A DNA stretch of 64,000 nt from the IMG/VR virus record IMGVR_UViG_3300046170_000505; one strand, 5' to 3'. Within the stretch, counting starts at the first letter, position 1, and each line of letters begins with the position of its first letter. The translations under genes and the position numbers were made by a program. The notes under the pieces were generated by a model. That model was not told where the DNA came from and ran no database searches. It was given only the letters and a program-made list of their open reading frames with translations. This DNA is from a virus. Shown here piece by piece: positions 11,819 to 20,800 of the stretch.

Positions 11819-14800
11819 ATGGCAGTAAGAGCAAATGTTGATCTAAAAGTAAACATGGCTTCAGTAAAACGAAGCATGGATCGCGCTGCTAGAGAAGTAA
11901 ACAAAACCGTACAAAATGTTTCAGGGAAAGATATATCTTTTAATGTAAACGGAAAAAGCTTTACTCAGCCGCTTGGTAGAATTACATCGTCTGCAAATGA
12001 ATTCACCAAATCTTTAGAAGCTTCTAATGCTCGTGTTATAGCGTTTGGAGCTTCAGTTGGAATAATTAATGCAATAACAGATTCTTTTAAATTTTTAATT
12101 GCAGAAACTGTTAGGTTTGAAAAAACCCTTCAAGATATTAACGTGGTTTTAAATTCCTCAAATGAGCAGATACAAAAGTTTGGACAAGGTTTATTTGATG
12201 TAGCGCAAAACACAGCTCAATCTTTCAATATTGCCGCTGACGCCGCTCTTGAATTTTCTCGTCAAGGTTTAAGCGTAGAAGAAGTTTTAAAAAGAACTAA
12301 CGATGCCCTCACATTGACTCGTATCACAAGCTTAGATGCGGCTGAAGCTGTTTCTGGATTAACTGCCGCAGTAAATGCTTTCGGGGAAGCAGGTTTAACT
12401 ACAACGGATATTATAGATAAACTAGCGGCTGTAGACGTAAAATTCGCTGTTAGCTCTGAAGATCTAATTAACGGTCTTGAGCGGGCTGGCGCTGTTGCTA
12501 TTGATGCTGGTGTTGACCTTGATAACTTAGTTGGAATTATAACTTCTTTGCAGCAAACAACTGCTCGTGGTGGTGCGGTTATTGGTAATGGACTTAAAAC
12601 TATTTTTACGAGAATCCAAAGGCCAGAATCCATCAGGCAGCTAGAAGATATGGGCGTTGCAGTTAGAACTCTAACTGGAGCAGTTCTTCCAGCTGACAAA
12701 GTCTTAAAGAATATAGCAAAAGGTTTTGAAGAACTATCCCAAAGTCAACAATCAAACATTGTTCAGTTTGCCGCTGGAATATTTCAAGCTAATATTTTTA
12801 GAGCCGCTCTTACTGACTTAGCAAAAACTCAAGGTATTCAACAGCAAGCTACTGAAATATCAGCTAACGCAGCTGGAGAGGCAGCTAGAAAAAATGAACT
12901 TTTAAATAAAAGTATATCCGCTATGGCTTCGCAAGCTGGTTCTGGATTAAAAGAACTAGTAGGAATAATGGGTGAATTGGCGATAAAGCCAGAGCTAGGC
13001 GAAGCAGTTGGAATATTTGGTAATGCTATAGAAGGCTTAAAAAATGCATTAGGAGGAGGAGAAGACGAAGGTAATGCGTTTGCAAAAGGTTTAGTTAGAG
13101 GTATTGGGAATGTTTTGACTGGTCCAGGAGTTATAGCTTTTGCGGCTATTTTTACAAAACTTTTATTTAATGTTTTTAAGTTCGCTTCTGGTTCGTTAAA
13201 AGATGTTTTAGGAATAGTAACTCAAAAAGAAAAAGTTAGGCAAATTGAAGAGTCTATAGTCAAAGTATTAGGCTCAAATGTTCAAGTAACTCAAGCTTTA
13301 AATCGACTTGAAGGAGACAGGATTGCTCAAGAGCAATACATACTGGGGATAATAGAAGCTCAAACAAATGCGCTTGCAAAACAACAACAACTCGCAAGCA
13401 AATTAGGCCCCGCTCTTTTAAAAAGAGGGATAACTCCAGATCTTAGTTACGATAATACCCCTGGTACGCTTGTTGATATCGATGGAGATGGGGTGATTTC
13501 AGGCGCTGGAGGTATTTTACCTCAAGAAAAAAATGCAGAAAGAAAAGGAGCCATAGAAGGAGGCTATAGCCCTGGAAGAGTAAACAAAATGAAAGTCCCT
13601 GGAATGGGTGATGTTATTTATAATACCGCCGAAAAAGTAAAGAATTTTGAGGGAATGAAACAGCCTGCTATTATGCCGCCACAAAGCAGTAGGGCTGGAA
13701 GAAACTATAAAGAAAAATTTTCAGAAAAACATGGTTTTGATCCTTATGCTAGTGGAGGACTTATTCCTAATTTTGTGCCCAGAAAAGGCTCTAATGTTGA
13801 TAAGGTTTACCAATTATTAAAAAATGCCTGGTTGTCTGAAGGGTACAGAATGACAAACAAAGAACTTACAGATGCCACTGGCCTTCCAGGAGCCCCTGAT
13901 AATCCATATAAAAAAGCCAATTCAAGCTTTAATAGAGATTTTGGAGCCAAATTAAACAAAGCTGGATACACTGTTAATACAAGACCACGCACAGAATACT
14001 ACCAATACTTACCAACGAATAAAGAAAAAATTGCAAAATTTATACAACGGGAGCAAGACCCCGCAAAAAAAGGAATTGCGACAATAACCGATGACGAATT
14101 AATGGATAAATTTTTAAAACAAAAAATTTTAAAATCCGCATCTGGACATCATTTTCAAGCCGCAATTGAAGCTGGAGGAAGATCTAAAGTATCTTTTGCA
14201 AATTCAGTTACATCTTACAGAAATCAATTCGTCAACGAAGACAAGCTTGTAGCGCCACCAATATATTTAAAAGATGATTCAACTTACGTTGGCCCACCTA
14301 ATTCTAGTCCATGGGCAAATGTATCATTAGAATCTAAGGGAAAGTCAAAAGTAAATGCTACTGGCAAAGAAATTGATAGTGTTTTCAATGGTATAAAAAA
14401 CGGAGCTCCTCAAAGTTTTTTAGGTTTAGATAAAAGGTTTGATATAAACCCACTAACTAAAAAAGAACTAGCCGACTTCAAAAAACAAAATTTTAGCGCA
14501 AATGTTGATCATTATGGATTTGCTAAAATGCAAGGAAACCCACCAAAACCCGTTTTTTTAAGTTATAATACTTTAGCAAATGCGCCTTATAGCTTGAACG
14601 CGAATGGATTTGAACATGCAATTTCAGATTTTAAACGTCGTAAACGAGGACTTGCGGGATCTCCTCTTGATTTTATAGATGTCCCTGGAGAAGCTAAATT
14701 CGGACCAACAGCATATAAAAACACCCTTGACGAGCATTTAACAGGAAAATTTTTAAGGCACTTAATTGGCACTGACTCAATATCATGGCCACCACGAGCA

Positions 14801-17800: not shown

Positions 17801-20800
17801 TTATATGCTCGTGAATATTCACTTAGCGATAGCAACCTAAAAGAAATGACGTCTGGAGTTTACAGTTCTGGGAATTTAAGAAAACTAAGGGTTATGAGTA
17901 GAGCTTTCGAGGCGAATAATGAAATGCCTGATCAAAATGACGAAGAGTGGGAAGATGATCTTGTCAATAATTCAGGAAATGGATTTGATGATGCTTCTGA
18001 TGAAATGGAAGGCAGGCTAGGCGCATATTCAAGACTAAGAAAAACCCAAAACCAAAATCGTTTATGGAAAAATAGTATGGCTGGAACTATAAATAACCCA
18101 CTACCGTTAGCAACATATAAGACTAATGAAATGTTTGGGCCTGGCTACATTATACCTGACTTAGGCGCTCTTGATATTTATCAAGATGGATTTACAACCG
18201 AAGATGATAAAAAAATAAGGTCAATATTCTCTCCAAATTTAAATCGAGATAATCATCTAATTGAAAGAAAAATATCCGAAAAGCATTTAGACAATAAAGG
18301 GTTTTCAGAAATGTTATCTGATGTAGCAAAAGATCCAGAGAAAGCAATGAATGCTTCCAGAAGAATGGGGATTGAGGGAATAAAAGAGCATGTTGATAAT
18401 CAAAGCAAAGGTTTAGTTCCTAATTTTGCTTTTGACCCAAACAGTTTTGAAAAAAATAAACGAGCAAGGAACGTTCATGAACAAATGTTCGGAACGCTTG
18501 ACAGCAGAACAAAAGATATCCAAAATCGAAACCAACTTAACAGAGAGAAAGCCTTGCGCGGAGAAGACCCAAAACTATTCGACAGGCATTACCCTGATCC
18601 AATCTTAGGACAAGCAAGAAATAAAATAATCAATGCCCCAACTGGAGGAGGAGAGAAAAATGTTGCTCAAGCTATCAGATCATCAAAAAGGATTGAAAAA
18701 TCCAAAAAAGAAGAATTAATAAAACAAATAGGAAGCCAAAGGCTCAAAGACCTAGATGAAAAATACTTAAATAAGTCAAACAAAAATAGTCATACGTCAA
18801 GACTACAAAGATTTGTAAAACAAAGAAAAGATCTTGAATCAGCTATTCAAAGTGAAAATTTTGAAAAAGCTAGAGAAATCAAAAATGCAGACTTTATACA
18901 AAACGAAAAAATTTACAACGAGTACGCGAACTATTTAGGAGAAACAAGATATTTAGACTCCGATGTTTCAACAGCAAAAAGAGCTCAAGAAAGATTTGGT
19001 AAAAATCCTCATTCAGACTCAATGAATGATCCAAACACTTTAGGGTATTATCCAGGTATAACAAAATCTTATGGAGTTCCAGGAGAAAAATCTATATCTT
19101 ACAATCCATACCAAACCGATTACCCTAAAAAAGGCCCAAGATCATTTAGAAACTCTGGTTTAATACCAAATTTTTCTAAAGTTTCAAGAACGATAAAATC
19201 TCAAGAAGATAGGGTCAAGGGTAAAGGAGAGTTTATTGGAGGCGGAGTAAGTGAAAGGGATAAAGACATAGCGTTTAATATGTTTGATCATTTCATTTCT
19301 AAAATCTCAGGGTTATCTAGCTCTTTTGGATTAAACGAAAGAAGAATGTCTTTAACTGGCACCGCAGAAGACAGAAACTTAATTGAAACATTTAAAACTT
19401 CAGGCAAAAGCGAAAAAGATTTAATTCAAATAGCGGGAAGCCAAAGAAAACTTAGGAATATATTAGACGGCTACATGCTCGGGCATTTTGAAACTTTATT
19501 GCTAGCAAAAGGAAAGTTCAAACAAGCAGAAGACCCTTTAATGCAAGGAGATCTTAGTAAAGGTTTGGTGCCTAATTTTGCGGGCATGGACTTATACAGG
19601 GGAGTAATAAGAGACAAGGGAGCTAAATACAACAAAAAAGATGTTTTTGAACTAACTCCCAAGAGGCAAAAACAATTCGCATCTAGTTCGATAACCAGCA
19701 TAGAAGATCTTAAACAATATTTGCTTGGACATACGGATAATCAAAACGCATCGTCCCTAGTATCTACATCAACTCAAAAAAGCGTAGCCATGGAGTTTGC
19801 AACAAGCAAGGATTCTTCAAAGCAAGGGTTAGTATCAAAAGAAAACATGAGTTTTAGACGTATGTACAATCCTAGAAAAGTAGAAAAATTGCTTAATTTT
19901 ATGATGGACAGAAAAGGCTGGTCGGAGGCAAAGTCAGTTCAGTGGTTTTTAGAAAACGCTAAAAATAAAGACATCGGATTTCACATAAAAAGGTGGATGG
20001 ATGAAGGTAGTAAATTAAAAAAACAAAATGAGTTTGAAGATGAAGTAGCACTGCTAGGAAAGCAAGCTTTTACTGACAGAGACAACTTAGCCCCTTTTTC
20101 AAAAGGATTAACTCCTAATTTTGCAAACCCTCTTTCAGACGCTTTACAAAGAGAAAAATCGGCTGGCGTACCTAGTTCAAGAATCAGGGTAGAAAAAAGT
20201 TCTCAATTAAAAAGCCCAATGAATCCAATGGGTCTTGCAGTCACAAACACTCGTGATGAACCAGGTGGATTAGCTCAAGGAATAAGAAGAGCCAAAAAAC
20301 AAGGAATAGACCCCAAGAGACACGGCATTGATGTTCCAAATTTTGCAACTCCAGTAAGCAAAGATCAATTTGATAAAATTTTGAATGATATTGTATCTAA
20401 AGCAGAAAGTTCATTTAAGGACATAGAAAAAACCCTAGATGACATTGAGCTAGGAGATTTAGCTAAAGATCTTAAAAAGAAATTTGATGATTCAATAGAA
20501 GAAGCGAAGAAAACAAAAGATACCAAAAAAGTTCTAGATATAAAAGACGAAGCTGAAACCATCAAACAAAAAGGGATAGATAAATTTACAAAAAACCCTA
20601 AGCAAATACTTGGTTCGAATAGCCAGCATTCCATTGGAGCCACAAAAGATAATGCAGACAAAAAGATGGCGCAGCTCGAAGAAGCAACTAAAAAATTAAC
20701 TTCAAGTATAGAAGAAGCCGATATAGAAGTACAACAAAACACAAAAAGCCAGGGGGACAACTTAGTCAAACTTTTTGCACTTCAATCCATAATTAGTACT

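Follow-up and report, generated by a model that had tools for sequence, protein, structure and literature searches.

The window analysed here, a stretch of 64,000 nucleotides from the IMG/VR virus record IMGVR_UViG_3300046170_000505, contains a gene (11819-26974, + strand) that forms a single open reading frame (ORF) for a giant tape measure protein (TMP) of 5,051 residues, hereafter P0001. Near its N-terminus, P0001 carries a PhageMin_Tail domain (PF10145, residues 117-316, E = 2.2e-25) that exceeds the curated cut-off, and tail tip genes follow downstream, with homologues of lambda gpM (gpM-like, PF05939), gpL (PF05100), gpK (JAB and NlpC domains), and gpJ (gpJ-like, PF13550). Because the N-terminal domain is combined with lambda tail tip homologues, P0001 is assigned by sequence as the TMP of an uncultured lambda-like siphophage. 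It contains an array of 12 modules (13757-20344, +) fenced by 13 copies of one short peptide, G-[LF]-[VI]-P-N-[FY].

The 13 copies, with the full form G-[LF]-[VI]-P-N-[FY]-(A), span residues 647-2842 and comprise all PN[FY] strings of the protein. Their prolines lie at residues 650, 1036, 1154, 1228, 1483, 1746, 1908, 1939, 2201, 2450, 2585, 2766, and 2840, and the codons of their glycines (position -3) start at nucleotides 13757, 14915, 15269, 15491, 16256, 17045, 17531, 17624, 18410, 19157, 19562, 20105, and 20327. From the amino acid composition 0.74 copies would be expected, and shuffled sequences (n = 2,000) peaked at 4. A six-frame scan of the window found the motif confined to the TMP ORF, the sole exception being one FLPNY without the glycine. 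The first copy closes a glycine-rich "type B" unit ahead of the array (13349-13777, +; residues 511-653; family hidden Markov model (HMM) E = 8e-44), which AlphaFold2 (AF2) modelled with low confidence and as a hairpin only. This copy reads YASGGLIPNF (residues 643-652, nucleotides 13745-13774), as quoted in the initial annotation of the window, and the C-terminal strings cited there are likewise all present (FWGGKIQRFAKGG at residue 4528, QNFSGGG at 4568, NSGGKIPSM at 4843, and YYDGGIVG at 4938).

The 12 segments between the copies, 25-380 residues each, represent 11 unrelated sequence families. They may be effectors, as in polyvalent proteins, with no Pfam family assigned to any of the 12. 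The last of them, termed fam0 (20123-20335, +; residues 2769-2839), has a near-invariant sequence, NPMGLAVTNTRDEP, and is nearly universal in the family. Two other modules, module 1 (13775-14932) and module 4 (15509-16273), contain strings resembling D...(D/E)xK (DFIDVPGEAKF and PIDHI...GETKSGEF, respectively), which were spotted by eye only and are suggestive of a restriction-endonuclease-like fold. Neither the pre-array unit nor fam0 nor the C-terminus of P0001 gave a meaningful match in sequence searches of PDB chains.

The array is not peculiar to this phage. A search with residues 640-2850 of P0001 retrieved 120 giant TMPs (2.8-7.5 thousand residues) and about 120 shorter relatives, all of which have the motif. 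The number of copies per related TMP ranges from 3 to 23, and the first copy usually stands near residue 630-650. The logo of 849 distinct copies from the 120 relatives reads [AS]-x-G(91%)-[LF]-[VI]-P-N-[FY]-A(50%), where the invariance of the asparagine follows from the way in which the copies were collected. Among the 120 giants, 151 sequence families of inter-motif segments can be distinguished, of which 79 have a single member, and the modules follow one another in shuffled order. The first module (~240 residues) and the last, fam0 (~71 residues), are near-constant among the giants. The family of module 4 of P0001 (~240 residues) is the commonest first module among the relatives. Fam0 was found in 105 of the 120 giants and in more than 119 IMG/VR contigs. 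No part of the TMP family is better conserved than this module, which always lies between the last two linker copies, just ahead of the hydrophobic and helical ruler part. It also occurs in three contigs of aquatic metagenome-assembled genomes, from Cellvibrionales, Flavobacteriaceae, and Crocinitomicaceae, and the GenBank phage collection contained no cultured relative with a match to fam0 or to the type A unit described below. The AF2 model of fam0 predicts a small helix-strand-strand-helix core, for which Foldseek found no match in PDB or BFVD at E ≤ 0.001 and an ESM Atlas feature search found no usable match.

In the shorter relatives, a glycine-rich "type A" unit with three to four PNF copies spaced 22-36 residues apart follows directly after the N-terminal domain, and this unit is homologous to the type B unit (hhalign E = 7e-23). 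Proteins from four family members that start beside the motif (P0124, P0125, P0133, and P0137) were considered as natural splits and set aside as unusable, as they resemble contig-end or frameshift fragments.

At every position of the motif the 13 copies of P0001 differ in their synonymous codons. Thus the peptide is conserved and not the DNA, and a recombination site at the DNA level was rejected on this ground. The AF2 model of fam0 with its flanks, built from an alignment of 96 sequences, has a core with a predicted local distance difference test (pLDDT) score of 76-83, and both flanking PNF copies score below 50. The motif columns are nonetheless near-invariant in the same alignment, and low predicted order together with strict conservation characterises short linear motifs in flexible linkers. 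Blocks of 75-94% identity that P0001 shares with its closest relatives stop 2-10 residues past a PNF; the motif is therefore the place where modules enter and leave the protein. Taken together, the sequences support a motif that has been amplified and is under selection at the peptide level. The motif itself is real, and a role as a processing site appears plausible.

The C-terminus of P0001 is, by sequence, of the lambda gpH type, with a [FY]A.GG...GE[FY]V unit. The first such unit (25385-25621, +; residues 4523-4601, FWGGKIQRFAKGGLVEGPAGIDNVPAMLTAGEYVVPKEEV) belongs to a family whose profile matches residues 732-771 of lambda gpH (HFATGG...GEFVFTKEAT) with E = 4e-6 in a one-sequence search (Z = 1). 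The second (26342-26653, +; residues 4842-4917, NSGGKIPSMLTRGEGFIP..., together with YYDGGIVG at residues 4938-4945) repeats the first (hhalign E = 1e-13). The Pfam family of this region, Tape_meas_lam_C (PF09718), had no match at E ≤ 0.01 in residues 2843-5051.

How the linker relates to this C-terminal unit is less direct than the first copy suggests. The initial annotation had likened the linker to [FY]-A-x-G-G-x-[IV]-P, a form that copy 1 has and that does not extend to the rest, as [FY]-A-x-G-G is found in one of the 13 copies. Family-wide, [FY]A.GG precedes 20% of the copies that close a glycine-rich pre-array unit and 0.3% of all others; this context does not characterise the linkers of the array. 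A relationship between the linker and the gpH-type unit is nonetheless suggested by two observations. Five family members (P0050, P0051, P0064, P0070, and P0198) have no gpH-type unit and carry, in the position that it normally occupies, a type B PNF unit about 170-190 residues from the C-terminus. Furthermore, the C-terminal unit opens, in the family consensus, with G-G-[LK]-[IV]-Q-[KR]-[FY]-A-x-G-G-x-[VI]-x-G, and within ±40 residues of this start a linker matrix of seven columns scores best with F-A placed over F-A in 26-29% of 253 distinct contexts. The register [FY]A.GG.[IV]P, that of the initial annotation, is the best match in a further 19-23% of the contexts, which makes about half in all, compared with a chance level of 1.2% per register, an enrichment that is a property of one consensus and not of 253 independent trials because the contexts are related sequences. 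At the C-terminal unit of P0001 itself the absolute matrix score is low (-0.9 bits).

Two well-studied phages provide known cases of TMP processing. A structural study of Ur-lambda from 2025 reports that gpH is processed at its C-terminus, in agreement with the initial annotation, and describes the exact cut site, the protease, and the catalysis as unknown (PMC12617516). The position near FATGG given in the initial annotation is a putative one for an unmapped site and is compatible with the masses: a cut at F733↓A734 (↓ marking the scissile bond) would give 79.8 and 12.5 kDa, close to the reported gpH* and the roughly 14 kDa gpHC. In T5, pb2 is cut after R1127 (PMC10038345), and R1127↓A1128 is the only mapped TMP cut. 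We translated pb2 from the T5 record (L130:8122-11781, - strand; 1,219 residues), where the context of the cut is NANSFVPR↓AEGGMMYPG...MGEHGTEVVTP. Apart from the F-V-P at this place the protein contains no [LFY][VI]P, and the single best linker-matrix match among about 1,200 positions of pb2 sits exactly at R1127↓A1128; by chance, a top match would be expected no more than two residues from the cut in about 0.4% of cases. V-P-R↓A-E-G-G of T5, [IV]-Q-[KR]-[FY]-A-x-G-G of the C-terminal units, and [VI]-P-N-F-A of the linkers (followed by x-G-G in type A units) can all be placed in one register, from which a cut after the aromatic residue is predicted.

Of the readings considered, the likeliest is a role of the motif in proteolysis: each copy would be a processing site cut at PNF↓A and read in trans by one conserved factor, a reading that we hold tentatively, as quite possible rather than probable. 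One trans-acting factor, which may be the gpK JAB domain or a protease of the host, would recognise the motif in the flexible linkers and cut after the aromatic residue (P-N-F↓A). The linker site would be related to the one with which the glycine-rich C-terminal unit opens, the place of the T5 cut (F-V-P-R↓A-E-G-G) and of the probable lambda cut (F↓A-T-G-G), and would have been multiplied. A conserved P6-P1 stretch followed by a small P1' residue is in the style of specific polyprotein proteases. If every copy of P0001 were cut, the computed products would be a 69-kDa N-terminal part, twelve pieces of 3-43 kDa, and a 245-kDa ruler part, and the twelve modules might leave as separate proteins in tail maturation or after ejection. 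Copies within one protein agree at position -2 (aliphatic or aromatic) more closely than shuffled copies do (variance 0.111 vs. a maximum of 0.064), which fits a single reader per phage, cutting or binding, with shared ancestry as a confounder.

Several observations weigh against this reading. The PNF units of types A and B have no significant similarity to the gpH-type units or to lambda gpH (hmmsearch E > 0.05; hhalign P 0.03-0.19), and the apparent kinship of linker and gpH-type C-terminus is accordingly weak. The idea of the initial annotation that an ancestral cleavage signal was multiplied is supported in part. The amplification and its selection at the peptide level, the gpH-type C-terminus, the preference of the matrix for the start of the C-terminal unit, the type B units in place of gpH-type units, the linker-like T5 site, and the masses computed for a gpH cut at F733↓A734 speak in its favour; homology of linker and C-terminus is not significant by HMM or profile-profile comparison. 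The tandem copies of the shorter relatives poorly suit a pure cargo-release role, as their spacing of 22-36 residues would release only short peptides and nothing useful. The comparison with a mapped TMP cut, as proposed in the initial annotation, places the T5 site first within pb2, but the score is ordinary for a protein of this size (P = 0.14), the likeness had already been noticed when the comparison was made, and no profile-level homology to T5 pb2 was detected. In lambda gpH, SFGGMIPMF (residues 103-111, L001:449-475) matches the linker matrix significantly (P 0.005-0.01) and stands just before the N-terminal hydrophobic stretch, where no cut is known. As gpH and gpH* have the same N-terminus (PMC12617516), a near-copy of the motif can exist uncut.

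The candidate enzymes add to these reservations, since none of those considered (the gpK JAB domain, a C1 peptidase, and an embedded zincin) is a protease specific to the motif-bearing phages. The gpK-like protein (36708-37433, +), with JAB/MPN (PF14464) and NlpC/P60 (PF00877) peptidase domains, keeps the JAMM residues E..HSH..S..D and the Cys/His/His of NlpC. Its JAB part recurs in all three related phage records and its NlpC part in one of the three; of the two candidates encoded in the window, only the JAB domain of gpK is conserved. However, gpK is common to lambda-like tails with or without the motif (1,655 relatives), which makes it a candidate and not evidence. The other, a papain-family (C1) peptidase (57652-58854, +; PF00112, E = 1e-15), lies among ribonucleotide reductase and nucleotide metabolism genes and was rejected as a conserved processing partner, having no match in any of the three related records, one of them 100% complete. 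An embedded zincin protease was rejected as well: P0001 has no HExxH and its array modules no Pfam peptidase, and HExxH occurs in only 7 of the 120 relatives. A literature search on gpK or JAB processing of TMPs, or on TMP polyproteins, found nothing relevant.

The tandem copies and the lambda near-copy suit a second reading, in which the motif stays uncut and serves for docking. Each copy would bind the same phage partner (for instance the tail assembly chaperone, a second TMP chain, or the lumen of the tube), so that any module between two copies would be kept extended and loaded and the protein would stay intact. We regard this as a possible, rather doubtful explanation. Binding motifs are likewise disordered yet near-invariant, copies 22-36 residues apart in the pre-array unit would suit multivalent binding, the linker-like GGMIPMF of lambda gpH is not a known cut site, and the uniformity of position -2 is what a single binding partner might also produce, with the same confounding by shared ancestry. 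The partner, however, is hypothetical only, and the likeness to the T5 cut site is left unexplained. In addition, the helical ruler part of P0001, about 1,650 residues, has no copy of the motif, so that a general contact with chaperone or tube would need a second binding mode.

The junction role of the motif would also be met by a passive joint without any reader, the only place where in-frame exchange of modules works and a legacy of cassette duplication and recombination. This is unlikely, even though similarity blocks between relatives break at the motif and the 151 module families occur in shuffled order: synonymous sites vary freely, so that the DNA offers only a few bases of homology, and a passive joint would not keep seven residues at 85-100% across more than 1,000 copies. 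Self-cleavage at the asparagine through a succinimide (P-N↓F), for which some virus capsid proteins and autotransporters provide precedents at Asn-X, would account for an asparagine that is invariant (by the collection of the copies) and followed by Phe or Tyr, and for the failure to find a dedicated protease, but it is highly improbable, as the known cases depend on a folded catalytic environment and the motif lies between unrelated modules in a state predicted to be disordered.

Returning to proteolytic processing, the known systems resemble P0001 in part. As in the maturation of lambda gpH to gpH* and gpHC, there is a lambda-like tail module with homologues of gpM, gpL, gpK, and gpJ and a C-terminal unit matching gpH 732-771; in contrast to P0001, lambda has one processing event and no module array, and PF09718 has no match to P0001. 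The T5 sequence SFVPR↓AEGG resembles the linker G-F-V-P-N-F↓A-x-G-G, but T5 has no aromatic residue before the alanine and a single site that yields one muralytic fragment rather than an array. Polyvalent proteins of phages and conjugative elements also combine unrelated swappable modules in one virion-associated polypeptide with predicted processing into units (Iyer et al. 2017, PMC5512222). P0001 shares this combination of many unrelated modules that can be swapped, but polyvalent proteins rely on an embedded zincin peptidase, in place of which P0001 has a repeated linker peptide; tape measure proteins have no occurrence in that paper (PMC5512222). Sle1 of a Streptomyces contractile injection system is a TMP-related reconfigurable effector (PMC13277306) and, like P0001, a tape-measure-like scaffold packaged in a tail-like tube with an exchangeable functional domain. 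It differs in having one C-terminal functional domain within a contractile system, whereas P0001 is a phage ruler with 12 modules and a repeated junction peptide.

The embedding of single enzymes in TMPs is known, as are TMP processing in lambda and T5, polyvalent proteins, and a TMP-like reconfigurable effector. A phage ruler that holds up to 23 modules with one conserved peptide at their junctions is a variation on these themes, and our literature search found no paper that describes it. Where and how lambda cuts its TMP has been an open question since 1974, with site and enzyme still called unknown in the structural paper of 2025, and the motif family yields a testable prediction: gpHC would start at A734, and PNF↓A would be the scissile bond of each linker. 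Such cutting, if it occurs, would mean that the tails of these uncultured aquatic phages are stocked with finished proteins in a reconfigurable set. This would give the phages a new way of taking over the host early in infection and would offer a natural model for packing cargo into phage tails. The boldest version of this idea, which we consider a long shot, is that Hydrophobic-[VI]-x-x-[FYR]↓A-x-G-G is a general TMP maturation site of T5 pb2, lambda gpH, and the P0001 family, multiplied up to 23 times in the latter, where a single conserved protease, either that of the host or the gpK JAB peptidase, would free a set of exchangeable enzymes that pass from the tail to the host cell.

The genes around P0001 show further peculiarities. 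Downstream, the gpM-like distal tail domain (PF05939) is embedded at residues 690-764 of a 1,486-residue protein (29255-33715, +), far larger than lambda gpM, and the gpL-like tail tip protein (35702-36721, +) matches PF05100 with E = 1e-46. Directly upstream of the TMP gene, no tail assembly chaperone was recognised; the place expected for the tail tube and chaperone genes is occupied by ORFs of 2,439 residues (3319-10638, +) and 375 residues (10635-11762, +) with divergent InlB B-repeat domains (PF18998). Further along the phage contig (42669-46917, -; 53651-63999, +) lie glycosyltransferases (GT9, GT1, and GT25), a GDP-mannose 4,6-dehydratase, and class I ribonucleotide reductase subunits, auxiliary genes of sugar and nucleotide metabolism.

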